NCBI GenBank assembly: GCA_944385885.1
Contig: CALWYY010000095.1
Coordinates: 10,634-74,633 of the forward strand
Source of the DNA: an uncultured Oscillospiraceae bacterium
Lineage (GTDB): Bacteria; Bacillota; Clostridia; Oscillospirales; Oscillospiraceae
Direction: 5' to 3'
DNA: 64,000 nucleotides
Within the stretch, counting starts at the first letter, position 1; each line of letters opens with the position of its first letter. Shown here in pieces: positions 50,680 to 64,000 of the stretch. The notes under the pieces were generated by a model that was given only the letters and a program-made list of their open reading frames with translations, did not search any database and was not told the DNA's origin. Made by a program: the position numbers and the translations under genes.

Positions 50680-51024
50680 TTACTTCACGAGGCCTTTGAC
50701 CTTTGCCCTCTTGCCCACGCGGTCGCGCAGGTAGTAGAGCTTGGCACGGCGTACCCGACCGCTGCGCACCGTCTCCACGGATACGATGCTGGGAGAGTGG
50801 ACAGGAAACACCTTCTCACAGCCCACGCCGTAGGAAACCCGGCGGACCGTAATGCTCTCGTTAATGCCCCCGTGCTTCCGGGCAATGATAGTGCCCTCAA
50901 AAGCCTGGGTGCGCTCCCGGCTGCCTTCCTTGACCCGCAAGGTTACACGCACGGTATCCCCCACGTTCATGGCGGGAAGCTCCGGCTTCATGTACTTTGC
51001 GGTAAGGTTCTGAATGAGATCCAT
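50680..51024 (-). CDS. rplS: 50S ribosomal protein L19
   Basis: 114 aa from MDLIQNLTAKYMK. GDTVRV, GVGCEKVFPVHSP. The ORF-track N-terminal extension is not conserved. Confidence 0.95.
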   Translation of the reverse strand: MDLIQNLTAKYMKPELPAMNVGDTVRVTLRVKEGSRERTQAFEGTIIARKHGGINESITVRRVSYGVGCEKVFPVHSPSIVSVETVRSGRVRRAKLYYLRDRVGKRAKVKGLVK

Positions 51025-51109
51025 AGTGACCCTTCCTTTTCCTGAGACGTTCTTACCGTTGTCTGGCGGCAGCGGACCGTCTTGATAGCCTGTACACACA
51101 GGCCTGAAA

Positions 51110-51138
51110 ATAATACCACACTGTTTTGAAAAGTGCAA
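51110..51138 (-). promoter_or_regulatory. Candidate sigma-A promoter for rplS
   Basis: Minus strand reads TTGCAC, 17-nt spacer, TATTAT, with TGg upstream. It leaves an approximately 80-nt leader. Confidence 0.5.
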
Positions 51139-51155
51139 GGGTATATTTCAAATTT

Positions 51156-51815
51156 TCAGCGAAAAACCGACATATCCTCCCGATACAGCTCTTGCCGGCA
51201 AAACCGCGTTCCCTCTGGGCGCAGCTCCGGCCAGTTTTGCGCCACTGCGTCTGCGATCCATTCGGGATTAATCACGGGCTCGGCAGCGGATATCACCGCT
51301 TCCACCGCTACGGAATCCGTTCTTGGGGAAAATGTCAGGTCCCGGAGGTGGTCTGAAAGAACCAGCGTCCCTTCCCCTCTCTTCGTGCGGCGCGTCACCT
51401 GTACCGGCGTATCCCGGAACCGCCCGGCCAGTGCTTCCGCCGCGGCGGCCATATCGCCCCCGCCGTACTCCCACGTTCCCTTCACCCGCAGCCACTTCAG
51501 TTCTCCCGGCTTGGCTCCGTTTTCATAGCAGCGCTGCACCCGGAGGCCCTCAGGCAGCACGGCGTTAAGCGTCCCTGGAAGGGCGGCCAGATCCACATCC
51601 CCCCGCAGGCGTACATCCGCCAGCTGGCAGAGGCTCTCCGTCCCCACTGACAGCGGCAGAAGGACGGAGATCAGGGCATGGGGGTTAAAGCCCTCGCTGT
51701 ACCGCACCGGCACCGACGCCCGGTGCAGGGCCCGCTGGAGGGTACGCATGGTATCCAGGTGGGAGCTCCACGCGCTCCGCCCGGTACATTCATACAGAAG
51801 CCGGATCCTATCCAT
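51156..51815 (-). CDS. Radical SAM-associated protein (TIGR03936 / DUF2344 type)
   Basis: 219 aa. HLDTMRTLQRALHRA...YSEGFNPH is the characteristic N-terminal block. Overlaps the upstream radical SAM gene by 8 nt. Confidence 0.8.
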   Translation of the reverse strand: MDRIRLLYECTGRSAWSSHLDTMRTLQRALHRASVPVRYSEGFNPHALISVLLPLSVGTESLCQLADVRLRGDVDLAALPGTLNAVLPEGLRVQRCYENGAKPGELKWLRVKGTWEYGGGDMAAAAEALAGRFRDTPVQVTRRTKRGEGTLVLSDHLRDLTFSPRTDSVAVEAVISAAEPVINPEWIADAVAQNWPELRPEGTRFCRQELYREDMSVFR

Positions 51816-53643
51816 CGCAGCGCCCTCCCCTCAGCAGAGCGGCGGCGCCGCAGCCGGTGCAGGCTGCACGGCAGTCCGGACTCAAAACCCCTTGCCGGGA
51901 CTGCTCCCGCTCCCGAATCAGATGTTCCCGCCGGACGCCCATGTCGATCCTGTCCCAGGGCAGAACCTCGTCCAGTGCCCGGGCCCGGTTAGCGTAAAAC
52001 TCCAAATCCACGCCGGTCCGGGCGGCGGCCTGCTCCCAGCGGGCCATGGAAAAGCCCTCCGACCAGGACTCCAGGTACCCTCCCTGTTCCCAGATGTCCC
52101 GCAGCAGAGGCCCGATCCGCCTGTCCCCCCGAGAGAGGACCGCCTCGGTAAAGGACGTCTCCGGGTCATGCCAGTTGTAGGTGACGGCCCGGGCTTTCAT
52201 ATTTTCCCGCAGCAAAGTAACCCGGCGCAGGTATTCCTCCCGGGTCACCTGCCCCTCCCACTGGAAGGGGGTGTGTGGTTTTGGCACAAAGCAGGAGGTG
52301 CTGACCGTTACCCGCAGGCCCCTGGCCCGGTTGGGCGCATTTTCCCGCCAGCAGTGCACCACCCGGTCCGCCAGCTCGGCTATGCCCAGCACATCCTCAT
52401 CGGTTTCCGTGGGCAGGCCCAGCATAAAATACAGCTTCACCCCGTTCCAGCCGCCCCGGAATGCCACCGCGCAGGAGCGGAGCAGGTCCTCTTCGGTAAC
52501 GTTCTTGTTGATCACATCCCGCAGCCGCTGGGTACCCGCCTCCGGCGCAAAGGTCAAGCCGGACCGGCGTACTTTCTGGACGCGCTGCATGATATCCATG
52601 GAAAAATTATCCGCCCGAAGGCTCGGCAGGGACAGGCCGATGCCCCGTGGCTCGCAATATTCCAGAAGGCCGTCGCACAAGGCCGGCAGGGATTGGTAAT
52701 CGCTGCTGCTCAGGGACAGAAGCGTGATCTCCTGGTACCCGGAAAATTCCAACGCCTGGCGGCCCTGTTCCAGGAGTTTCTCTACGCTCCGGTTCCGTAC
52801 CGGCCGGTAGATGTATCCCGCCTGGCAGAACCGGCAGCCCCGGATGCAGCCCCGAAACAATTCCAGCCCTACCCGGTCATGTACGATCTCCGTGGAGGGT
52901 ACGATGGCCCGCACAGGAAAACAGCTGTTTTCAAAATCCTCTACAATCCGTTTGGTGACCCGCTCCGGCGCTCCCGGCAAAGGTCGTACGGCTAAAAGCG
53001 TTCCATCCTCCTTCCATTCCGGCTTGTACAGGGAGGGGACATACACGCCCGGGATCTGTGCTGCCTGATGCAGAAACCGCTCCTTTGTCCACCCCTGGTC
53101 CCTCGCCCGGCGAAGCAGTTCCAGTACCTCCCCGTCCAGGCTCTCCCCTTCTCCGATCACAAACAGGTCAAAATAGTCCGCCATGGGTTCCGGGTTGCAG
53201 CAGGCGCTGCCGCCGGCAAACACCAGAGGGATCAAGCTCTCCCTGTCCCGGCTCAAAAGCGGGATCCCCGCCAGATCCAGCATCTCCAGCACCGTCGTAT
53301 AGGCCATCTCGTAGCCAATGGAAAAGCCCAAAGCATCGAATTCCCCCAGTGGGTCCCCGCTTTCCAGCGCCCACAGGGGCAGCTTCTCCTCCCGCATCTT
53401 CCGGTCCATGTCGAACCAGGGGGCAAAAACTCTTTCGCACCACACGCCGGGGATGTCGTTTAGCGTCTGGTAGAGAATCCGCATACCTGTGTTAGACATG
53501 CCAATCTCATACACGTCCGGAAAACATAGCGCCATGCGCAGCGCTACATCGTTTTTGTCTTTGATGATCTGCCCGTACTCGCCGCCCACATAACGGGCCG
53601 GCTTTTGAACCTTTGGCAAAATCCGCTCCAGTTTCCTGTCCAT
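51808..53643 (-). CDS. B12-binding-domain radical SAM protein (TIGR03960 type)
   Basis: 611 aa. CX3CX2C (CIRGCRFC) after an N-terminal B12-binding-like domain. Conserved partner of the downstream DUF2344 gene. Confidence 0.85.
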   Translation of the reverse strand: MDRKLERILPKVQKPARYVGGEYGQIIKDKNDVALRMALCFPDVYEIGMSNTGMRILYQTLNDIPGVWCERVFAPWFDMDRKMREEKLPLWALESGDPLGEFDALGFSIGYEMAYTTVLEMLDLAGIPLLSRDRESLIPLVFAGGSACCNPEPMADYFDLFVIGEGESLDGEVLELLRRARDQGWTKERFLHQAAQIPGVYVPSLYKPEWKEDGTLLAVRPLPGAPERVTKRIVEDFENSCFPVRAIVPSTEIVHDRVGLELFRGCIRGCRFCQAGYIYRPVRNRSVEKLLEQGRQALEFSGYQEITLLSLSSSDYQSLPALCDGLLEYCEPRGIGLSLPSLRADNFSMDIMQRVQKVRRSGLTFAPEAGTQRLRDVINKNVTEEDLLRSCAVAFRGGWNGVKLYFMLGLPTETDEDVLGIAELADRVVHCWRENAPNRARGLRVTVSTSCFVPKPHTPFQWEGQVTREEYLRRVTLLRENMKARAVTYNWHDPETSFTEAVLSRGDRRIGPLLRDIWEQGGYLESWSEGFSMARWEQAAARTGVDLEFYANRARALDEVLPWDRIDMGVRREHLIREREQSRQGVLSPDCRAACTGCGAAALLRGGRCDG

Positions 53644-53729
53644 AAACCGCTCCTTAAAAAAGTACCGTTATTTTACAACAGAAACGTGCTGTTGACAAGG
53701 ATTTGACGCAGCGGCTTTCGGAAAAACAC

Positions 53730-54042: not shown

Positions 54043-55266
54043 TCACGTCACCTGATGCCGGCAATACTTTCTGCGTGCAATTTGAAGTTCGAGTGCGCCC
54101 AAGATGATGGCAACAAGCAGAATCATGTAAGGGAGGGTAATTACCAGTTTCCCAATGGAATACACATCGTAGGAGGAAAAGACAGAATATGTCATTACCG
54201 CTTTCGCAGGAAGCAGGGCAACAAAATGATTTATGACCGCGTTTTGGCTGGCGGGGAAAAACATCGGCGCCACCGTGCACAGCGTACTGATGATTACGGT
54301 CGTAAAGGGTGTTTTGCAGATGGAAGAAAGCAGCATGGTGAATGCCATGACAGAAAGTATCACAATATAGTTAATGCCAATGCCGTATAAAACAACCTGC
54401 CATATTTGAAGATCATAAAAGGAATAAAGAGATAAAATCTGAAAATCGCAATTCCACCCCCGCACGCCAAAGGTTGCCGCGATAACACCAACGCCGACAA
54501 AAACCGTAATCAGATAGACAATACTTGTCACAATCCAGCCTGCAACGATCTTTGCGCAGGCGGTAGCACCCCTCCCCTGTTTTGCTGGCAGCAGTATGGC
54601 ATCTGTACCGATTTGATACTCATAGGAAAAAATCGGTGAAATCATGATGCAGGTTGCCAATGCAAGCAGCATAAACAGGAGCGAAAAGGCTCTGATGAGA
54701 AGCGTTTCCCAGCCCTTGGTATGGTCAAACTCAAAAGGAATTGAAATTTGAGAGTCCCTGTCCAATATGTTTTCTTTTTCTGCCGCCGTGTAGCTGCCGG
54801 ACTCTAAAGCTGCCCGCACGTTGTTATGTCGGGCTTCATAGAAATCTCCCGCTTGCTCATAGGGGAAGGTCGCAAGGTCGGTCAGGTAATCGGTGTAGGG
54901 CGTGTATACGCCTCGAATAAGATCCAGAATCTTCCAGTACGGCTGTACGTTTTTTATATAGCTCTGCTGATAGTCGGTATTGCTGTCATAGTTTTGGTTT
55001 ACATAATTTTCTTGGTAATCCTGCAATATTTTTTGCAGCCGCTGGGAATCAAGAGGACCGGCCAAGGCGTGTTCATGGTTCCGCTTCTCTGAAATCGCAT
55101 CCAGGCCTTCCAATAGCGCACCGTCTTCTCCGTAGTAGGCTTGATCGGAAACAAAGACAAAGCTGATTGCTATGATGCACAGCAGCATCAGGGAAAAAAT
55201 AATCCACGTAGCCTTTCGCTTCCATATTTTTTTCGTTTCATAATACACAAGTGTTTTCATCGTCAC
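54043..55266 (-). CDS. ABC-2 type transporter permease
   Basis: 407 aa. One N-terminal TM, an extracytoplasmic domain of about 150 aa, then 5 TM helices. Overlaps the ATPase gene stop by 4 nt. Confidence 0.7.
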   Translation of the reverse strand: MTMKTLVYYETKKIWKRKATWIIFSLMLLCIIAISFVFVSDQAYYGEDGALLEGLDAISEKRNHEHALAGPLDSQRLQKILQDYQENYVNQNYDSNTDYQQSYIKNVQPYWKILDLIRGVYTPYTDYLTDLATFPYEQAGDFYEARHNNVRAALESGSYTAAEKENILDRDSQISIPFEFDHTKGWETLLIRAFSLLFMLLALATCIMISPIFSYEYQIGTDAILLPAKQGRGATACAKIVAGWIVTSIVYLITVFVGVGVIAATFGVRGWNCDFQILSLYSFYDLQIWQVVLYGIGINYIVILSVMAFTMLLSSICKTPFTTVIISTLCTVAPMFFPASQNAVINHFVALLPAKAVMTYSVFSSYDVYSIGKLVITLPYMILLVAIILGALELQIARRKYCRHQVT

Positions 55267-56180
55267 ATTCTCCTGGCGGAATGAGAAGAAACCCCGCCGA
55301 GTTCCTCCGCAAAATAAAATAGGTACAAATCCTCAAGGTTGGTTGGCACACTCACTGCCTCCGGCGCAGGCTTTTGGCTAGATACGATGCGAAGCTCCGC
55401 ACCGCTTCCGGTATGCCGCAGATTGCAAATGCAGGCATTCTTTTCATAAAAACTGACTTCCTGTTCCGGCACGGTAAGCGTCCAGGTCACACCCGAAGCA
55501 CGTTCAACCAGTTCCGCCGGATGTCCAGAAAGTATGAGCCTGCCTTTTTTCATCATCAGAATTTGATCCGCAATATATTCTACGTCGCTGACAATATGTG
55601 TGGATAGAATCACAATCTTGTCCTGCGATAGATCGGAAATCAGGTTTCGAAACCGGATCCGTTCTTTTGGGTCCAGCCCGGCAGTCGGCTCGTCCAGAAC
55701 AAGAACTTTTGGGTTATTCAAGACCGCTTGTGCAATACCTAGCCGCTGCTTCATCCCGCCGGAGAAAGCCCGTATTTTTTGCCCGGATACTTCCGATAAA
55801 CCGACGATCTCCAAAAGCGCACGGGCTCTTTCCAAAGCGGCGCGTCCGTAAATCCCTTTCAAAGACGCCATATACAGCATAAAGTCCTGGGCGGAAAAGT
55901 CCGGATAATAGCCGAAATTTTGCGGTAAATACCCAAGAATATCGCAATATTTTGTCCCCATGCTTTGAATATTGTTTCCGTTATATAGGATTTCTCCGCT
56001 TGTGGGCTGCAGGATCGTGCAGATCATACGCATCAGCGTTGTTTTGCCAGCGCCGTTTGCTCCAAGCAGGCCATAAACCCCGTTTGACATGGTATAGCTG
56101 AAGCGGTCTACCGCTATTGTGCTGTGGAATTTTTTTGTCAGCCTATCAAATGTGAGTTCCAAAATGATACCTCCACGCAT
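55263..56180 (-). CDS. ABC transporter ATP-binding protein
   Basis: Walker A GANGAGKTT, signature FSGGMKQRL, Walker B LVLDEPT. Start at the internal Met, overlapping the upstream stop by 1 nt. Confidence 0.92.
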   Translation of the reverse strand: MRGGIILELTFDRLTKKFHSTIAVDRFSYTMSNGVYGLLGANGAGKTTLMRMICTILQPTSGEILYNGNNIQSMGTKYCDILGYLPQNFGYYPDFSAQDFMLYMASLKGIYGRAALERARALLEIVGLSEVSGQKIRAFSGGMKQRLGIAQAVLNNPKVLVLDEPTAGLDPKERIRFRNLISDLSQDKIVILSTHIVSDVEYIADQILMMKKGRLILSGHPAELVERASGVTWTLTVPEQEVSFYEKNACICNLRHTGSGAELRIVSSQKPAPEAVSVPTNLEDLYLFYFAEELGGVSSHSARRM

Positions 56181-56944
56181 TATTGCAATCTTATATACTC
56201 CCACTGTTTGGAACAATCGCGGAACATTTTATACAATTCTGCTGCAAGGACTACAATACTGACCGCCAGTACAAACACCCAGACAGCCGTTGCTGTGCCA
56301 AAGTACCATTCCGGCCACATATTGATAGAGAGCGCACCGAGGGCAGACAGGCTAACACAGTATGCTGATATATAGTATTGGGCGTTTGCGCCCCCGAGGC
56401 GATTCATAAGGAACAGGGATCCCGCCGCGGCCAGCAGGCTCGGCACAAGCCCATATAGAATCAAGGCTCCCAGTGAATAATAGGTCTTCATGGCGGTCAG
56501 GCACAGCATGCATGTCAAAGAAAACAAATCAACCAGTGTTATCAGGATCAGCCTTGCCAAAAGGATTTGCGGCAGTGAAAAGTGCGCGGGTAATTCCAGT
56601 TCTGCCATTCCGTAGCGGGAAGAACGGGAGAGCTCTCCGGTTCCCAGCAGGACTGCAAGAGGAGCAATTGGAACGAACAGAAGGAACCGATCATTGTCTT
56701 GCAAAACCGCAATGGTATAAAGAGCATAGAGGCAAAGCAGCAAAAGCTGGAGAGCAAGCAATTTTCGGTTCAGAAAGCGGGCCTGTGTTCTGATAAACTG
56801 ATACAGCGAAAAATTCTTTGGCGGCGTAAGGGCGTTCCTTCCTGCCCGCTTCGTCAGCTGGACCGCCAGATCAGCATTTGGCATAGGGGGTATTGACTGA
56901 TAGAATGCTTTCAATTCCTGTTTCAAGTTTCGCTTCATTTCCAC
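56180..56944 (-). CDS. Polytopic membrane protein in anti-sigma position
   Basis: 254 aa. A cytoplasmic N-terminus of about 70 aa followed by about 6 TM helices. Overlaps the sigma gene stop by 10 nt. No recognisable zinc anti-sigma motif. Confidence 0.5.
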   Translation of the reverse strand: MEMKRNLKQELKAFYQSIPPMPNADLAVQLTKRAGRNALTPPKNFSLYQFIRTQARFLNRKLLALQLLLLCLYALYTIAVLQDNDRFLLFVPIAPLAVLLGTGELSRSSRYGMAELELPAHFSLPQILLARLILITLVDLFSLTCMLCLTAMKTYYSLGALILYGLVPSLLAAAGSLFLMNRLGGANAQYYISAYCVSLSALGALSINMWPEWYFGTATAVWVFVLAVSIVVLAAELYKMFRDCSKQWEYIRLQ

Positions 56945-57450
56945 TCCTCCTTTCCCAAATTTTTTTGCAGCTGATTCAATGCGCTGCGTATGCGGTACAT
57001 GACCTGAAATCGTGAAAGGCCAAGTATTTCCGCAATCTCTCCCACCTTAAGCTCTTGCCCGTAGCGCAGGAGCAAGACCTCCTTTTGATTGTCAGGAAGG
57101 GCGGAGATGGCGCTGGACAGGCAAATTTGTTGAACTGATCGCTCCGCAAAGTCCCCTGTTGTGCATATATCTGGGTTCTCCAGGGAATCCAAGGAAACAG
57201 GATGCGCCTTTTTGATCCAGTTTTGGCATAGGTTGCCGGCAATGGTATAGAGAAGCGCCTTCGGCCGTTTAATATCAGCATACATCTGTGCGGCATCCAA
57301 AAAGCGGATAAACGTATCCTGCGTAATATCCTGCGCCTCTGCGCTGTCGTGTATTTTCCAATAACAGAATTTATAGATCTGCCCATAATACGCAGATATG
57401 ATGTCCTCCATCTCTCCGGATGCGTCCGATAGGCCCCTCCTGCGTGTCAC
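56935..57450 (-). CDS. RNA polymerase sigma-70 family (ECF-type) sigma factor
   Basis: 171 aa. Region 2 (YYGQIYKFCYWKIHDSAEAQDITQDTFIRF) and region 4 HTH (LKVGEIAEILGLSRFQVMYRIRSA). GTG start 4 nt after AAGGGGGTGA. Confidence 0.88.
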   Translation of the reverse strand: MTRRRGLSDASGEMEDIISAYYGQIYKFCYWKIHDSAEAQDITQDTFIRFLDAAQMYADIKRPKALLYTIAGNLCQNWIKKAHPVSLDSLENPDICTTGDFAERSVQQICLSSAISALPDNQKEVLLLRYGQELKVGEIAEILGLSRFQVMYRIRSALNQLQKNLGKEEWK

Positions 57451-58007: not shown

Positions 58008-58619
58008 CTAATTCCATTGGTCGTTTAAAATCAGTTCTTGTAAAGTTTGCATCGAAACATCCACCGAGGCGATCTCGTCTGCACATCGTTTCAGTTCGCC
58101 CCAAATGATTTTTTCATGCTCAACGTTTTTCTTATACTTCATCTGGTGCTCCAACGCCGCCCAGAAATCAATGGCGATTGTTCTCAGCTGTATCTCCGCC
58201 ATAAGCTTTTGATTGGATGGCGAGGGGAAAGATAAAACCAAATGCAAACTGCGATACCCATTGGGTTTCGGGTGGGAAATATAATCTTTTGTTTCGATAA
58301 CCTCAAATTCAGGACGTGTCTTTAGCCAGCTGGCGATTTTATCGACATCGTCCAAAAAGGAACATACGATTCGCACACCTACGGTATCGTGCATATGGGA
58401 AAGTGCAGTTTCCCCATCGGTCGGCAGCCCCCTCTGCTCCAATTTGCGGATCATACTGTCCGGCTGCTTGATTCTGGATTTGCAATATAGAATTGGCCCT
58501 ACGCTATTTGGATAACTATGCGTGGGATAGTCATGGATCAGATCCAGCAAGGTTTGCTCTACCTGTTTCAACCTGGAAAAAGCTTCGCCGTAGTACTCTT
58601 CATAGGTCAAGGCCATCAT
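58008..58619 (-). CDS. Small alarmone synthetase (RelA/SpoT-domain GTP pyrophosphokinase, RelQ/RelP-like)
   Basis: 203 aa single-domain protein. Synthetase motifs SRIKQPDSMIRKL, DTVGVRIVC, HPKPNGYRSLHLVL, EIQLRTIAIDFWAALEHQMKYK. Confidence 0.9.
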   Translation of the reverse strand: MMALTYEEYYGEAFSRLKQVEQTLLDLIHDYPTHSYPNSVGPILYCKSRIKQPDSMIRKLEQRGLPTDGETALSHMHDTVGVRIVCSFLDDVDKIASWLKTRPEFEVIETKDYISHPKPNGYRSLHLVLSFPSPSNQKLMAEIQLRTIAIDFWAALEHQMKYKKNVEHEKIIWGELKRCADEIASVDVSMQTLQELILNDQWN

Positions 58620-59010
58620 TCCTCATTTTTATACCCCTGTTTTTCCCTTTGGGACAGACAAAATACAGAATAATGCCCGTTAGGAGAAATAGAATTCCAA
58701 ACATCCAGTAAACGGAAACGAGCCGGTTTGTAGTCCCGTAAATCTCCAGCGCCCCTTTAAACAGACTGCCTATTGTCAGAGCCGCTATGCCGGAGTGATA
58801 CAAATTACGAGACACCCTGTTCGGCGTCGGCATTCTGAAAAAAGCCAGTCCAAAAAAAGGCAGCGCGCCGCCAACCAAAGGAAATACAAACGCATACAGC
58901 ATAAAGTAGGAATACACCTCATAACTGAAATACTCGTAGACAGCGCCAAACAGTATGCAGAATATTGAAATGAACAGGTAGAGAACTCCCGTCCAGACCA
59001 TATTCTTCAT
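58600..59010 (-). CDS. Hypothetical 4-TM membrane protein
   Basis: About 136 aa from the ATG at 59010, 4 nt after the upstream stop. The ORF-track TTG start is at 59034. Four hydrophobic helices. The 3' end overlaps the SAS start by 20 nt. Confidence 0.55.
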   Translation of the reverse strand: MKNMVWTGVLYLFISIFCILFGAVYEYFSYEVYSYFMLYAFVFPLVGGALPFFGLAFFRMPTPNRVSRNLYHSGIAALTIGSLFKGALEIYGTTNRLVSVYWMFGILFLLTGIILYFVCPKGKNRGIKMRNDGLDL

Positions 59011-59014
59011 TCGG

Positions 59015-59941
59015 TCAATATCCGATGTAGACAATGTCGCTTACGCTCCTTTCCTTAATGCTTCGTCCACTGGTTGTTGGATTGTTGATCACCTCGCCAT
59101 TGAAATACATGGTAGAGGAGCCCCCGCCATCCAGATTATAGGCGGTCAAAACGCCAAGCTCATTCATAAACTCCGCCAGCTGGGACAGGGACAGGCCGGC
59201 GCTTTCATCCGTTCTTCCATCGGAAACCACAAACACATAGTGAAGATCATCTATGATACCAATGGCAGTTCGTGGATTGCTCGTTTTTGCTTTTCCGACT
59301 TCATCGTCTTCTGAAACAACCACCTTGCCATCTTCTATCAAGGCGGGGCCAAACGATAAGATCTGCTGCGCCCCGTCCGCGAGGAGCTCCTCGGCAGTAA
59401 CGTCTGCTTCGTTGATAATGGCGAAGCTTCCATCGTTATAGATTACAAGATCCACCTGCCCATAGGCTGCTGTACTCCGATAAAGCACCCCGTTGCGGAG
59501 AACATATCCTTCTTCCTGCACCCCGTAATAATCGCCGTTAATGGCCAGAATCGCACCCGCCCTTTCCGCAATCTCAGATGTCTTTTCCGTCACATTGTGT
59601 CCGTAAGCGTTTTGCGCAAACGCGGTCTGAAGATACTCCGGCGAGGACAGTACGATATCCGCAACATAAATGTACGTGTCATATTCCCGGTACTCCGTGA
59701 TGGTTATCTGGATGTTCCCATCGCTGTAGGAGGATTCCGACACTACAAGCTCCGTGTAGGTGGAAATCGCTTCACTGCCCTGTTCCGCATCGGCTTCGGC
59801 AGTACTCTCTCCACGGCTTTCCGTTTCCGGTATTGCTGTATATACCTGGGTGATTACAAACGTATCCAAGGCAAGATAGACTGTAAATGCAGCCAGGAAG
59901 ATGCTGTATAGAACAGCCCACCAGTGCCGCTGTATGAACAT
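59015..59941 (-). CDS. Phosphodiester glycosidase (DUF2233/NAGPA-like) family protein, membrane-anchored
   Basis: 308 aa. N-terminal anchor WWAVLYSIFLAAFTVYLALDTFVI. C-terminal GPALIEDGKV...NPRTAIG...AYNLDGGGSSTMYFNG is typical of the family. GAGGTG RBS. Confidence 0.8.
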   Translation of the reverse strand: MFIQRHWWAVLYSIFLAAFTVYLALDTFVITQVYTAIPETESRGESTAEADAEQGSEAISTYTELVVSESSYSDGNIQITITEYREYDTYIYVADIVLSSPEYLQTAFAQNAYGHNVTEKTSEIAERAGAILAINGDYYGVQEEGYVLRNGVLYRSTAAYGQVDLVIYNDGSFAIINEADVTAEELLADGAQQILSFGPALIEDGKVVVSEDDEVGKAKTSNPRTAIGIIDDLHYVFVVSDGRTDESAGLSLSQLAEFMNELGVLTAYNLDGGGSSTMYFNGEVINNPTTSGRSIKERSVSDIVYIGY

Positions 59942-60224: not shown

Positions 60225-60263
60225 ACAGCTCCTGCCCAGAACTGCTGTCTGGACAGGAGCTGT
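60225..60263 (-). terminator. Terminator hairpin after the beta-helix lipoprotein gene
   Basis: About 16-bp stem acagctcctgcccaga / tctggacaggagctgt (one mismatch) starting 4 nt after the stop. The downstream T-tract is weak. Confidence 0.55.
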
Positions 60264-60266
60264 AGA

Positions 60267-61853
60267 TTAATGTCCGCCGCGGCCCTGTCCCATGCCGCCT
60301 GGACCGGCCATGCCTCCGCCCATCTGGCCCGGATTGCTTTCCGAGCCGTCGTTGGTGGTGACATCACCGCCGTTGTTGGCGTAAGTGCCGTCGCAGTCGA
60401 TGGCGGTATTTCCACTTCCGTTGCAGGTGAGTTTCAGCGTGCCGCCGTTGATGGTAAGGCTGCCGTTGGAATCAATACAGTCGCCGGTAGAGACAATGGC
60501 AAACGATCCTCCATTAATGATAATAAAGCTGTTCGACGAAGCAGCAAACTGCTCCTGCCCAGAACGCGCTCCGCCAAAACCGGAACTGTCCGCGCCGCCC
60601 GCCGCGTTAATACCGTCATCCACAGAAGTTATGTTGAACGTACCGCCATCGATGGTAACCGACAGGCCCTCGATCCCTTCATAGCAATACGGGATCGTAA
60701 ACATACCGTTTTGAATCGTGATGGCAGCATCTGAATGTACAGCATCATCGCCGCTTTGCAGACTATATTCGCCGCCTGCAATCAGAATATCTCCGCCCGC
60801 GTGGATAGAATCATCTGCCGTATCCAGTATAAAGCTTCCGCTCAAAATGGTGATTGTTCCGTCGGCTTTGATTCCTTTCTGGCTGGCAGAATTTTCTGCC
60901 GTTGCCGTGGTCTGGGTTTGGAACCCGCTTCCTTTCCCGGAACCGAATGTGTTGGCCGTCATGGTGACGCTTGCGCTGCCCTCACCTGTCGTGATCGTGA
61001 AATTGCCATTGTCGATTTGCAGGTATGCGCCGGCGCTCACACCGTCGCCGTCAGCCGCAATGGTAAAGGTTCCGTCTGCAATGTAGAGATAACCCAGGCT
61101 GGTATCATCCGTATTTTCCGCATGGATACCGTCTTTCCCGGATGTGATCGTGTACGTTCCACTTGTGATCTGCACACTGTCCTTGCCGGAAATACCGTGA
61201 CTCGCCGCCGTTATGGCATAGGTTCCGCTGGCAAATACCAGATCATCTTTGGATACGATACCGTGTCCAGCGGCAGCGTTGATCGTAAGGGTTCCCTCAC
61301 CGCTCAGAGTTAGGTCCGATTTGGAAAAGATCACGGCATCAATGTTGTTGTCGTCGATTGCAACATATTCCCCACCGTTGGCCAGAGAGTTTTCTGAGCC
61401 GGACGCCGTAACGATAAGCACCTTGTCCGCTTCTAAGATATAAATAGCGGCGGAGGTATTGTTTGTGATCTCGACTCCGTTCAATACCAGCTGCACCTCA
61501 TCCGTGTCCTCCGCATTGACAACAACCATACCGTTATTCAATGTGCCGGAAAGAACGTAGGTGCCCTCATCCGTGATGGTAACCGTGCTGCCGGAGATCT
61601 GAACGGCATTGGAATTGCTGGAGGCGCTGTCGCCTGAGAGAATGATCTGGGCGCTGGTTTCCTCATCGTAATCAATCTCCAGGTCCTGATCCGTAAGCAT
61701 TCCGGCCAAATTGTCGGCCGTTACGGATTCTACGGTTTCCGATTGCGTTGTTTTTGTAGAGGTGCTCACCGTTTCCGCAGCATCGGCGGTGCCACATGCC
61801 GAAAAGGTAAACACAACCGCCAAAGCCACCGGGAGTAATGCCTTTATCTTCAT
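60267..61853 (-). CDS. Cthe_2159-type carbohydrate-binding beta-helix lipoprotein
   Basis: AAGGAGG RBS then MKIKALLPVALAVVFTFSAC (lipobox-like). About 10 degenerate coils with D-x-I-H/D-G-I signatures (GHGIVSKDD, SHGISGKDS, KDGIHAEN, DDSIHAGGD, DDAVHSDA, DDGINAAGG, GDCIDSNG). Gly/Met-rich tail. Confidence 0.75.
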   Translation of the reverse strand: MKIKALLPVALAVVFTFSACGTADAAETVSTSTKTTQSETVESVTADNLAGMLTDQDLEIDYDEETSAQIILSGDSASSNSNAVQISGSTVTITDEGTYVLSGTLNNGMVVVNAEDTDEVQLVLNGVEITNNTSAAIYILEADKVLIVTASGSENSLANGGEYVAIDDNNIDAVIFSKSDLTLSGEGTLTINAAAGHGIVSKDDLVFASGTYAITAASHGISGKDSVQITSGTYTITSGKDGIHAENTDDTSLGYLYIADGTFTIAADGDGVSAGAYLQIDNGNFTITTGEGSASVTMTANTFGSGKGSGFQTQTTATAENSASQKGIKADGTITILSGSFILDTADDSIHAGGDILIAGGEYSLQSGDDAVHSDAAITIQNGMFTIPYCYEGIEGLSVTIDGGTFNITSVDDGINAAGGADSSGFGGARSGQEQFAASSNSFIIINGGSFAIVSTGDCIDSNGSLTINGGTLKLTCNGSGNTAIDCDGTYANNGGDVTTNDGSESNPGQMGGGMAGPGGMGQGRGGH

Positions 61854-61866
61854 CTGTATGCCTCCT

Positions 61867-62568
61867 TTACAATTCACCAATCAGGGTTTCCTGCGCAGAA
61901 AAGGAAATTTCCAGATTTCCATTGCGGCAGCGAAGCCGGTCGATCAATTCTTTTTCTTTTGCCGCGGTTTTTAATGTGAGGTTATAGGTAAGGCGAAAAA
62001 GGCTTCCCATGTTCGTGGTTTTTACCATTGTCAGTTCGTGGGAGGAGGCGTACTTATTTAGAATCGGTTCAAAAACATCCGTGTAATCCAGATCTTCCGG
62101 AATGGTAATATGAAGCGTTTTATACAGTGCCGATTTCTTTTTCGCCCCGAAATCCAGGCGGTCGTACAGAGCACTGACAAAGCCAAGAAGAACTGCGCAC
62201 AAAAACGCATAGCCAAGATATCCCATTCCAATGATCAGACCGGTGCCCATAGCAAGGAAGATCGCGCCTATCTCTTTTGCCGAACCGGGCGCAGACCGAA
62301 ACCGGACAAGGCTGAATGCCCCCGCGACCGCAACGCCGGTACCTACATTTCCATTCACCATCATAATGACTACACAGACCACCGCGGGGAGAAGCGCAAG
62401 TGTCGCCACAAAACTTTTGGTATATCTGGATCTAGTTCCGTACATATAGAACGCCACCAGGATTAGCCCAATGACCAACGCGCTTCCAACGCAAAGAAGG
62501 AAATCGGCTAAGGCAATAACACTGGTCATGTCCGTGTCAAACAGCCCCCGAAACAAATTAGCAAACAT
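61867..62568 (-). CDS. DUF4956-like membrane protein
   Basis: About 233 aa from MFANLF. Four TM helices then a soluble C-terminal domain of about 90 aa (LHITIPEDLDYTDVFEPILNKY...LTYNLTLK). Overlaps the VTC ORF stop. Confidence 0.75.
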   Translation of the reverse strand: MFANLFRGLFDTDMTSVIALADFLLCVGSALVIGLILVAFYMYGTRSRYTKSFVATLALLPAVVCVVIMMVNGNVGTGVAVAGAFSLVRFRSAPGSAKEIGAIFLAMGTGLIIGMGYLGYAFLCAVLLGFVSALYDRLDFGAKKKSALYKTLHITIPEDLDYTDVFEPILNKYASSHELTMVKTTNMGSLFRLTYNLTLKTAAKEKELIDRLRCRNGNLEISFSAQETLIGEL

Positions 62569-63289
62569 GGTAAGCCCTCCTTGATCCATTTTCTTTGGAC
62601 CCTGTCATCATGTGCTGGTAAGCCAGCCCGTACTTTGAAAACGATGTTTGGAAAGCCCTGAGTTGGTTCAGCGCATGGCTCATCCAAAGCGGCAGGCCAC
62701 CCGCTGTTTTGATCTCCATCAGCGTCTGCCCCTCCTTAAGCAGCGGCGTCCCATATGCCTCGCTGCCAAGGCTGAGATCGTATTCGCGGTAGAGAATATT
62801 CTCGTCAAAGGTAACGCGGAAATCCCCGCCATCCAATGAATAAAAGGCTTCTCTTTCATAGGAGAGGAATACCGTGGGATGCAGCCCTGCGTAATAAGAG
62901 CGGAAATATTCGATCTCCTCCGCTATCTGGGATTGAACCGGAAGAGGAAGATTGTGCTGGAAGGTACTCATAGCCTGCGCTTCCGAAAGGGTAAGCCTGC
63001 GTTTATAGACGACAGATTTGTATTTCTTTTTCAGCTCAACGAAAACAGGATCGTCGTCAGCCGCCATTTGATAGCTGCGAACACGCAGCTTTTCTTTATA
63101 TGCCGGTTTTTCCAAAGAACGCCGGATCAACCGAAAGCTGTCGGTATCGAAATAGACATTCCGAATCACGGTACGCCCATAGCTATCGAGCTTCATATAA
63201 GGTTTCATTGCCTGCAAAATCGCCCTCTTCTGCTGCGCCGTAAGCAGGTATTTGATTTCATATCGCTGGAAGGTTGCCTGATATGCCAT
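62558..63289 (-). CDS. VTC-domain (CYTH/triphosphate-tunnel, polyphosphate polymerase-like) protein
   Basis: 243 aa from the ATG 8 nt after AAAGGAG. Alternating charged beta-strand motifs RYEIKY, LRVRSY, VELKKK, YKRR, SYEREA, RVTFDE, MEIKT. No TM segment. Confidence 0.85.
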   Translation of the reverse strand: MAYQATFQRYEIKYLLTAQQKRAILQAMKPYMKLDSYGRTVIRNVYFDTDSFRLIRRSLEKPAYKEKLRVRSYQMAADDDPVFVELKKKYKSVVYKRRLTLSEAQAMSTFQHNLPLPVQSQIAEEIEYFRSYYAGLHPTVFLSYEREAFYSLDGGDFRVTFDENILYREYDLSLGSEAYGTPLLKEGQTLMEIKTAGGLPLWMSHALNQLRAFQTSFSKYGLAYQHMMTGSKENGSRRAYHVC

Positions 63290-63317
63290 TTCTTTCACTC
63301 CTTTCCCATTTACTTGC

Positions 63318-64000
63318 TCAGGCTATCAAAGATTCGATTAGATCCAACACTTGGGAAATGGGAATAGCGTACCCCATGCCTTCAACATCGGTGGAGGATA
63401 CTTTCGCTGTATTGATCCCTACAAGCTCGCCGTTCATGTTGAGTAACGCTCCCCCGCTATTGCCAGGATTGATGGCTGCGTCCGTCTGGATGTATGTGGA
63501 AGCACCTGTTTCCGTGCTGATCGTGCGGCCCAATGCGCTGACGATGCCCGTTGTCACGGATTGCCCGTATCCAAGGGCGTTTCCGATCGCTACGATCTGT
63601 TCGCCCACTGCCAATTCCTCCGAATCTCCAATGGCAACGACGGATATCTGGGAAAGGGTTTCCGAGGACAGCGCACCGATCGAAACCTTCAACAAAGCAA
63701 TATCCATGGGCTCATCATAGCCGCACAACTCAGCCTCATAGGTCTGGTCGTCTACAAACGTAACGGAAAGCGTTATGGCGCCTTCCACCACGTGGTAATT
63801 GGTCACCATATACAAATAGTCGTCATTGGCGTAGATGATTACGCCCGATCCGCAGCTGGTGGTCTCCTGCAACTGCGTTTGGACACGCCCGTTCCGCCCA
63901 AACTGGCCAAAATAGCTTTGTACCTCCTGGACCGAGATGTTCGTTACCGCTACAACGGAGGTCAAGCCCTGCGCGGCGATCCCCGACACATCAAGAGACT
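63318..64000 (-). CDS. S1C (HtrA/DegP-like trypsin-fold) serine protease, 5' end outside the window
   Basis: Catalytic triad contexts TNYHVV, DIALLKV and GNSGGALLN are all present. The frame is open to the window edge. Confidence 0.88.
   Translation of the reverse strand, partial: SLDVSGIAAQGLTSVVAVTNISVQEVQSYFGQFGRNGRVQTQLQETTSCGSGVIIYANDDYLYMVTNYHVVEGAITLSVTFVDDQTYEAELCGYDEPMDIALLKVSIGALSSETLSQISVVAIGDSEELAVGEQIVAIGNALGYGQSVTTGIVSALGRTISTETGASTYIQTDAAINPGNSGGALLNMNGELVGINTAKVSSTDVEGMGYAIPISQVLDLIESLIA

Follow-up and report, generated by a model that had tools for sequence, protein, structure and literature searches.

A stretch of 64 kb from the genome of an uncultured Oscillospiraceae bacterium, referred to here in its entirety as the window, carries on its minus strand three consecutive genes that could equip the cell with a polymer-making module at its membrane. 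The first encodes a soluble VTC-domain protein of 243 residues, a triphosphate-tunnel barrel and candidate polyphosphate polymerase (62558-63289), the second a DUF4956 membrane protein of 233 residues with about five transmembrane helices and a C-terminal ACT/PII-like domain (61867-62568), and the third a lipoprotein of 528 residues with a right-handed beta-helix of the Cthe_2159 type and a Gly/Met-rich C-terminal tail (60267-61853). The reading that we favour, tentatively and with slightly less than even confidence, is that of a regulated, membrane-associated polyphosphate polymerase of the VTC type that is split and lacks the SPX domain, that works with a non-homologous membrane partner, and for which export and surface capture of the polymer are the proposed mechanism. 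The domain identities, the tunnel fold, the conservation of the catalytic residues, the translational coupling of the genes and their synteny are shown here and come first.

How firmly can the first protein be placed in the VTC family? All three domain assignments made in the initial annotation of this DNA were borne out by Pfam, with significant matches to VTC (PF09359), DUF4956 (PF16316) and Cthe_2159 (PF14262); NCBIfam yielded no model for any of the three proteins. The VTC match (E=4.5e-41, 141.4 bits against a cut-off of 23) covers profile positions 1-234 of 235, and within the 243 residues Pfam finds the VTC domain alone, an SPX domain being absent. The AlphaFold2 (AF2) model of the protein is a tunnel barrel with a predicted local distance difference test score (pLDDT) of 93.6, and the motifs that had been quoted as the mark of such a barrel (RYEIKY, LRVRSY, VELKKK, YKRR, SYEREA, RVTFDE and MEIKT) are all present, each on a predicted beta-strand. 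Compared as a single sequence with the proteins of the PDB, the VTC protein gives weak matches to Vtc2 and Vtc3 (E=0.1-0.7), and a profile was therefore needed, which was built from 92 bacterial homologues that are 37-56% identical to the window protein. This profile ranks yeast Vtc4 (E=1.9e-13) ahead of the inactive subunits Vtc2 (9e-9) and Vtc3 (~1e-7). In a Foldseek search with the model the top 13 PDB matches are all chains of Vtc4, Vtc3 or Vtc2 (E 7e-13 to 8e-11, template-modelling scores 0.60-0.72), followed from ~2e-8 by CYTH proteins, ygiF, class IV cyclases and thiamine triphosphatase; no bacterial VTC-domain structure was among the PDB matches. Together with the alignment of nine catalytic residues described below, these comparisons uphold the earlier proposal that the tunnel is of the VTC type rather than a generic CYTH tunnel. 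The family is large, with 5,969 cluster representatives at 50% identity (E<=1e-3). One of its longer members, P0330 (351 residues), carries a receiver-like domain fused N-terminally to the VTC domain (Response_reg E=7.8e-5, under the Pfam cut-off), a fusion that would point to direct control by phosphorylation in certain organisms. Two others, P0252 (677 residues) and P0332 (571 residues), join a truncated VTC domain to Cthe_2159 repeats without DUF4956 and were set aside as probable deletions or assembly artefacts, not true fusions.

Does this tunnel retain the equipment of a polymerase? Cryo-electron microscopy of the yeast VTC complex identified K200, R264, R266, K281, Y359, R361, S457 and K458 of Vtc4 as ligands of triphosphate and E426 as ligand of Mn2+; all nine residues are required for cellular polyphosphate (polyP) in yeast, their mutation lowering polyP, and K458 is the sole one of the nine that differs in the inactive Vtc2 (Ile) and Vtc3 (Leu) (10.1101/2023.01.27.525886). 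Mapped by hidden Markov model (HMM) alignment and by alignment with fungal Vtc4 fragments, these residues correspond in the window protein to K13 (Vtc4 K200), R69 (R264), R71 (R266), K87 (K281), Y144 (Y359), R146 (R361), E192 (E426), S218 (S457) and K219 (K458). A profile of the C-terminal 65 residues of the VTC protein found no match in the PDB, and fungal Vtc4 fragments were therefore recovered to place E426, S457 and K458; the mapping of E192, S218 and K219 rests on two common motifs, LE[IV]K and FSK[YF], together with the spacing of 31 residues between the Glu and the Ser in fungal Vtc4. One of these fragments, P0447, is degenerate, with His and Trp at the positions of R264 and R266, and served for the C-terminal FSKF register only. 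Eight of the nine residues are invariant or nearly so among the 92 homologues, the remaining one, Y144, being found in 78, and K219, which lies in the motif FSKY aligned with FSKF of fungal Vtc4, is present in all 92. The complete set is also kept in the homologues of Paenibacillus, Acetoanaerobium and Enterococcus and in a CotH-linked homologue of Pseudobutyrivibrio that is 27.6% identical to the window protein. In hydrolytic tunnel enzymes four Glu residues (E2, E4, E90 and E171 of AtTTM3) build a second metal site, and Vtc4 has basic residues at these positions, which guide the chain out (Martinez et al., PMC4641920). Three of the four positions could be mapped, the equivalent of AtTTM3 Glu-90 not being placed, and two of them are basic in the window protein (R9, equivalent to Vtc4 R196, and K194, equivalent to Vtc4 K428), the third being acidic (E11, at the place of Vtc4 Thr198). 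In addition, K67, K89 and R97 are invariant in the bacterial family at positions that hold Ala, His and Ala in Vtc4. Synthesis of polymer by the VTC protein is likely.

The genes are tied together at the level of translation. As the initial annotation had it, the three minus-strand open reading frames (ORFs) lie downstream of a gene for an S1C protease, and all were found in place. Start codons were read directly from the window DNA. The VTC gene starts with the ATG at 63289, 9 nt past GGAAAGGAG, which gives 243 residues; close homologues are nearly all of this length, and a GTG at 63298 that had been listed as the start is therefore probably not used. The DUF4956 gene starts with the ATG at 62568 behind an AAGGAGG and overlaps the end of the VTC gene, whose stop codon occupies 62560-62558, by 11 nt. 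Such an overlap, from which translational coupling had been proposed, is kept in 62 of 74 related loci, with a length of 8 nt in 47 of those. The ATG of the lipoprotein gene, at 61853, is again preceded by AAGGAGG and lies exactly 13 nt from the DUF4956 stop, and both this distance and the length of 528 residues agree to the letter with the earlier description.

Is the arrangement more than a local accident? A scan of species-representative genomes with the VTC protein gave more than 600 matches, the best 80 of which all come from Clostridia and are 52-71% identical, and gene order was then compared in 83 related loci of Bacillota (clostridial) by our own ORF calling and phmmer, with counts limited to loci that have enough flanking sequence. 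The DUF4956 gene directly follows the VTC gene in 75 of 75 loci with room for it, and a Cthe_2159 gene follows in 62 of 64; the trio is thus co-conserved in other genomes, as had been expected, and this synteny rules out chance adjacency. A distant VTC representative, P0379, lies on a contig of 1.1 kb. A two-component system, with an OmpR-type regulator and a HisKA kinase by Pfam, is found within a few genes in 29 of 36 loci. In the related locus L001 the genes for a response regulator and a histidine kinase precede HtrA, VTC and DUF4956, and going by such relatives the two-component system of the window lineage would lie past the window end. For the two-component system of L001 NCBIfam gave no equivalog, the best models, RppA/B and PhoB/R, remaining under cut-off, and a link to phosphate starvation is therefore not claimed.

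More distant loci vary around the pair. In Paenibacillus the order is kinase, regulator, VTC, DUF4956 and Cthe_2159; in Acetoanaerobium regulator, kinase, VTC and DUF4956 are followed by a PLD-type (cardiolipin-synthase-like) protein; on an E. faecalis plasmid VTC and DUF4956 are followed by response regulator, kinase and CotH; and on the Pseudobutyrivibrio plasmid pNP95 CotH, VTC and DUF4956 stand in this order within an exopolysaccharide cluster. The alternative partners are at L087:9495-11051 (the PLD-type protein of Acetoanaerobium) and L088:11704-13128 (the E. faecalis plasmid). The exported or membrane partner, which can be a Cthe_2159, a PLD-type or a CotH protein, therefore seems interchangeable, and the invariant core is the VTC-DUF4956 pair, usually under two-component control and accompanied by a partner that varies. 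CotH, which the initial annotation had suggested for flanking DNA beyond the window, did not turn up: searches at E<=1 with one seed and then with a two-seed HMM and phmmer, the seeds being taken from the CotH-carrying loci of Pseudobutyrivibrio pNP95 and E. faecalis, found no CotH in the window nor within 10 kb in the 83 related loci. Genes for Pel or another exopolysaccharide are likewise not among the window neighbours, which encode HtrA, a NAGPA-family protein, an alarmone synthetase, a sigma factor of the extracytoplasmic function (ECF) type and an ABC transporter. The neighbour clusters of the relatives that were scanned with Pfam comprise the two-component system, adenylosuccinate synthetase, a LysR regulator, an M23 peptidase and a GH20 hydrolase, and their sole glycosyltransferase is encoded by a GT2-GtrA gene in two loci. 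In these (L028:13457-14491 and L081:7632-8780) a GT2 glycosyltransferase is fused to a GtrA-type membrane domain and lies between Cthe_2159 and NAGPA, a position that may point to lipid-linked sugar transfer in certain variants of the locus.

The third protein of the trio matches PF14262 with E=4e-102 and the crystal structure of Cthe_2159 (4PEU/4PHB) with E=1.9e-36. Its signal peptide closes in the lipobox FSAC and its C-terminal tail is rich in Gly and Met, so that the earlier description as a beta-helix lipoprotein of the Cthe_2159 type holds in each of its parts. Cthe_2159 itself binds cellulose and polygalacturonic acid, the latter a polyanion, as reported in 10.1101/401869 with reference to Close 2014. 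Among the homologues in the related loci (L002-L083) about one quarter have low-complexity tails rich in Gly, Met, Pro and Gln like that of the window protein, and the others end in a conserved '...PELSFAVVILSSPE..KGETYT.TVG' module; a recognisable lipobox is present in at least 32 of 61. To our knowledge, the constant linkage of Cthe_2159 proteins to VTC-DUF4956 has not been discussed before.

The DUF4956 protein (PF16316, E=6.3e-17) shows four to five hydrophobic helices in hydropathy plots. Its AF2 model, built on a shallow alignment and of low confidence (pLDDT 58.8), has five helices followed by a beta-alpha-beta-beta-alpha-beta domain, which in a fold search weakly resembles PII and ACT folds. 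Of the earlier description as a protein with four transmembrane helices and a soluble C-terminal domain, the soluble domain and the assignment to DUF4956 thus stand, and the number of helices is better taken as five, as hydropathy and the low-confidence model suggest. The signature of the family is a Gly-rich third helix that closes with an invariant R89-F90-R91-S, of which R89-F90-R91 is shared even by the two most divergent sequences compared. By the positive-inside rule applied to the hydropathy profile, the basic loops 45-50, 89-98 and 138-150 would be cytoplasmic, and the RFR motif and the C-terminal domain would therefore face the tunnel enzyme.

The trio is flanked on both sides by genes on the same strand. 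Upstream, 28 nt before the VTC gene, lies a gene for a serine protease of the HtrA/DegP-type S1C family (63318-64000, the 5' part being beyond the window end) that matches Trypsin_2 in Pfam (E=4.7e-32) and the DegP/HtrA model TIGR02037 in NCBIfam (E=1.1e-64, under the family cut-off); relatives L001, L005 and L011 have an HtrA gene in the matching position. Directly past the lipoprotein stop, a scan for terminator-like elements and the sequence itself show a G+C-rich hairpin of 16 bp (60225-60263, minus strand), followed by a noncoding gap of 325 nt before the next gene. This hairpin is a probable terminator or attenuator that closes the first transcription unit; its tail is poor in T, and it may therefore be an attenuator or an RNA-stability element, not a classic terminator. 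A promoter scan gave no more sites than in shuffled sequence and was left unused. Beyond the gap follows a second unit of overlapping minus-strand genes (58008-59941). It encodes a membrane-anchored phosphodiester glycosidase of the NAGPA family with 308 residues and an N-terminal hydrophobic anchor (59015-59941; PF09992, E=1.6e-40; NAGPA structures 6PKI/6PKG at ~1e-11), a small polytopic membrane protein of ~130-144 residues, whose gene overlaps the NAGPA stop and has an uncertain start (58600-59034; no Pfam match, at least three strongly hydrophobic segments by hydropathy), and last a small alarmone ((p)ppGpp) synthetase of the RelQ/YjbM type with 203 residues (58008-58619; RelA_SpoT E=1.2e-31; NCBIfam model for GTP diphosphokinase YjbM E=1.3e-37, under cut-off). 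The order VTC, DUF4956, Cthe_2159, NAGPA, small membrane protein and alarmone synthetase recurs in L002 and L003. NAGPA and the small membrane protein follow Cthe_2159 in about six loci (L002, L003, L006, L011, L028 and L081), in three of which (L002, L003 and L011) the synthetase comes directly after them; NAGPA is accordingly an accessory gene that is confined to the lineage of the window and a few further ones and stands outside the conserved core. By its gene content the second unit would link the module to sugar-phosphodiester chemistry and (p)ppGpp. Both this unit and the conserved two-component system had been passed over in the initial annotation. Further on, just downstream of the synthetase, the minus strand encodes an ECF-type sigma factor, a membrane protein of 254 residues without Pfam match that may be an anti-sigma factor, and an ABC-2 transporter pair (54043-57450). 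The region 51000-53650, which spans a gene for a radical SAM protein (Radical_SAM_N2) and one for a DUF2344 protein, has a G+C content of 0.60-0.66 compared with ~0.48 in its flanks.

What has been reported on these genes elsewhere? Whitfield et al. (10.1101/768473) describe genes for CotH, a 'polyphosphate polymerase', DUF4956 and DUF4832 as accessories of pel loci in Gram-positive bacteria. In Streptococcus intermedius (SIR_1592-1594) deletion of the DUF4956 or the CotH homologue leads to less Pel production and aggregation; the authors met the three-gene synteny only at Pel loci and described the DUF4956 homologue as MgtC-like, with a membrane domain and a C-terminal ACT-like domain (PMC12345266). 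In C. perfringens NELoc-2 VTC genes occur with a CotH gene (PMC2879425), and the VTC-domain gene Clo1313_1989 of C. thermocellum showed weak signals of convergent mutation in ethanol-adapted strains (PMC10503014). The VTC-DUF4956 pair is therefore already annotated and mentioned in papers, usually with CotH next to Pel loci; no paper that joins DUF4956 with VTC was found in the searchable literature. The earlier statement that the gene set has only domain-level annotation and no biochemistry is nearly right: no biochemical study was found, but the set has been described at pel loci, and mutant phenotypes are on record for its DUF4956 and CotH partners. The version with a two-component system and a Cthe_2159 lipoprotein, without CotH or pel, is a variant not described in searchable papers.

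How might such a module work? In the reading that we favour, the cytoplasmic tunnel enzyme of 243 residues would move the gamma-phosphate of ATP onto a growing polyP chain, with Mn2+ or Mg2+ held by E192, and the chain would exit along the strongly basic tunnel. Coupled translation would provide the enzyme in fixed proportion with DUF4956, at which it would work, presumably in direct contact. The Arg-Phe-Arg motif of DUF4956 at the predicted cytoplasmic face of the membrane and its ACT/PII-like domain may then receive the chain, gate it, or both. DUF4956 would pass the polymer into the membrane or through it to the cell envelope, and the Cthe_2159 lipoprotein may bind or organise it there. The adjacent OmpR-type two-component system would set expression, and in the lineage of the window the module is grouped with genes of an envelope-stress type (HtrA, NAGPA and small alarmone synthetase). 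Export and surface capture of the polymer are plausible; we infer export and display because the VTC gene is constantly paired with genes for a membrane protein and for an exported partner, the gene after the pair being always extracytoplasmic or membrane-related (Cthe_2159, CotH or PLD-type) in the loci examined. The reading gains further support from the surface-polymer phenotype of the DUF4956 deletion in S. intermedius and from the binding of polygalacturonic acid ascribed to Cthe_2159. A more ambitious version appears doubtful to us, namely a polyP synthase-translocase independent of PPK in which a Vtc4-like enzyme docks on an oligomeric DUF4956, a new polyanion conduit, and extrudes polyP to the ATP-free envelope for interchangeable client proteins (Cthe_2159, CotH) as scaffold, chaperone or phosphoryl donor; such a machine would correspond in bacteria to the eukaryotic VTC machinery and might be its evolutionary origin.

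Several points weigh against synthesis coupled to export. A conserved tunnel centre alone does not confer polymerase activity, as AtTTM3 shares this centre and yet is a tripolyphosphatase (PMC4641920). E11, which corresponds to Thr198 in Vtc4, is invariant in the bacterial family and takes the place of the second Glu in ExExK, a motif that builds metal site 2 of the hydrolases. The tunnel thus appears Vtc4-like and even more basic, but with one carboxylate of the hydrolase type, and this carboxylate is the main sequence-level ground for caution about a polymerase. No assay of any bacterial VTC protein was found in the searchable literature. As to the membrane partner, no VTC-DUF4956 (Rosetta-stone) fusion was seen among the long VTC proteins inspected, a fold search with the DUF4956 model gave no significant structural neighbour, and when 58 DUF4956 members were compared with Pfam at E<=10 and 60 families were matched, the 25 matched most often did not include a Vtc1-type domain; with no Vtc1-type domain among these 25, a poor model and no significant structural neighbour, a channel role of DUF4956 is conjecture. 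The binding of polyP by the Cthe_2159-type lipoprotein, finally, is argued by analogy.

Could polyP be made without being exported? The catalytic residues would be conserved all the same if the polymer stayed in the cytoplasm and DUF4956, by analogy to regulators of phosphate/ATP homeostasis of the MgtC type, were a membrane anchor and a regulator acting through its ACT/PII-like domain, with a lipoprotein that merely shares the control by the two-component system. The weak PII/ACT resemblance of the C-terminal domain, the description of the S. intermedius homologue as MgtC-like and weak matches to the MgtC Pfam model in 17 of 58 DUF4956 members fit this picture, as do the receiver-like domain on the VTC protein of P0330 and the adjacent two-component system, which point to tight regulation. 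The MgtC matches are far under significance, however (best E=0.13), and neither the exported or surface gene after the pair (62 of 64 loci, with CotH or PLD elsewhere) nor the Pel and aggregation phenotype of the DUF4956 mutant is explained; we regard a purely cytoplasmic product as unlikely.

Alternatively, the pair may export polyP or short chains mainly as a phosphoryl or energy donor for extracellular enzymes, which have no ATP at hand. Elsewhere these would be CotH kinases, and in the window phosphodiester-handling enzymes such as a NAGPA protein that acts on a phosphorylated glycopolymer of the wall; this glycopolymer, and not polyP, would then be the target of the beta-helix. CotH genes are indeed linked to VTC-DUF4956 in Pseudobutyrivibrio pNP95 and E. 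faecalis, beside pel operons and in C. perfringens NELoc-2, deletion of the CotH or the DUF4956 homologue lowers Pel, and in the lineage of the window NAGPA follows, sometimes with the GT2-GtrA glycosyltransferase. However, CotH is missing from the window and the 83 related loci, NAGPA is confined to about six loci outside the conserved core, and no kinase is known to use extracellular polyP in these organisms, which makes the supply of a donor improbable. No more probable is a hydrolase or other triphosphate enzyme (tripolyphosphatase or polyphosphatase, NTPase or cyclase) beside a DUF4956 protein with an unrelated membrane role: invariant E11 at metal site 2, the hydrolytic activity of AtTTM3 despite its Vtc4-like centre and the significant structural matches to CYTH-type enzymes speak for it, but of the three acidic-patch positions mapped one is acidic and two (R9 and K194) carry a basic residue like Vtc4, the equivalent of the polymerase-specific Lys458 is invariant (albeit hydrolysis by AtTTM3 tolerates loss of the matching lysine), Vtc structures outrank CYTH structures by about four orders of magnitude in E-value, and Pfam assigns VTC and not CYTH.

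Synthesis of polyP in bacteria is attributed to PPK1 and PPK2, and the VTC route is regarded as a eukaryotic one, a phylogenetic survey (PMC10657179) being an example. The bacterial VTC family is common in gut Clostridia and keeps the full catalytic apparatus of Vtc4. If its members are active, they would constitute a third bacterial polyP synthase, and their wiring to membrane and surface might explain how polyP reaches the exterior of Gram-positive cells. Activity would also offer a reason why a 'polyphosphate polymerase' gene is linked to extracellular CotH kinases and to Cthe_2159 beta-helices, and a rationale for the Pel and aggregation phenotypes in streptococci. If the protein is a hydrolase, the finding shrinks to an ordinary conserved operon of unknown function.

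How does the trio compare with known systems? With the eukaryotic VTC complex (yeast Vtc4 with Vtc1/2/3; 3G3Q, 7YTJ and 8I6V) the window VTC protein shares the Pfam family, the tunnel fold, the nine catalytic residues and the basic exit, and it is likewise coupled, here genetically, to a polytopic membrane protein, consistent with synthesis at the membrane. In contrast to the eukaryotic enzyme, it has no SPX domain and is not fused to a membrane domain, and its partner DUF4956, with about five helices and an ACT-like domain, is not detectably related to the three-helix Vtc1-type domain. The bacterial proteins further differ from Vtc4 in the invariant Glu in place of Thr198 and in additional invariant basic residues, and control would lie with a two-component system rather than with inositol pyrophosphates. 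The cotH-VTC-DUF4956 sets of pel loci and NELoc-2 have the same adjacent and co-oriented pair, the catalytic residues, the RFR motif and a secreted protein beside the pair; unlike in these sets, the pair in the window comes with a Cthe_2159 lipoprotein in place of a CotH kinase and lacks a pel or exopolysaccharide operon, its conserved neighbour is a two-component system, and the window VTC protein is only ~28% identical to a CotH-linked one. With the CYTH/tunnel metalloenzymes (ygiF, CthTTM, AtTTM3, class IV adenylate cyclase and ThTPase) the window protein has in common the eight-stranded tunnel and the plug helix at its C-terminus, and it retains a single Glu of ExExK, but their structural match is weaker (~1e-8 versus 1e-12), of the three acidic-patch positions mapped one is acidic and two are basic, and Pfam gives VTC and not CYTH. 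Members of the MgtC family have a layout similar to that of DUF4956, with a small polytopic domain and a cytoplasmic ACT-like domain, the weak profile match (best E=0.13) not amounting to membership. The PL9-like Cthe_2159 of Clostridium thermocellum (4PEU/4PHB), finally, is clearly homologous to the window lipoprotein over the beta-helix, from which the latter is set apart by its lipid anchor, a second stretch of coils and the Gly/Met-rich tail.

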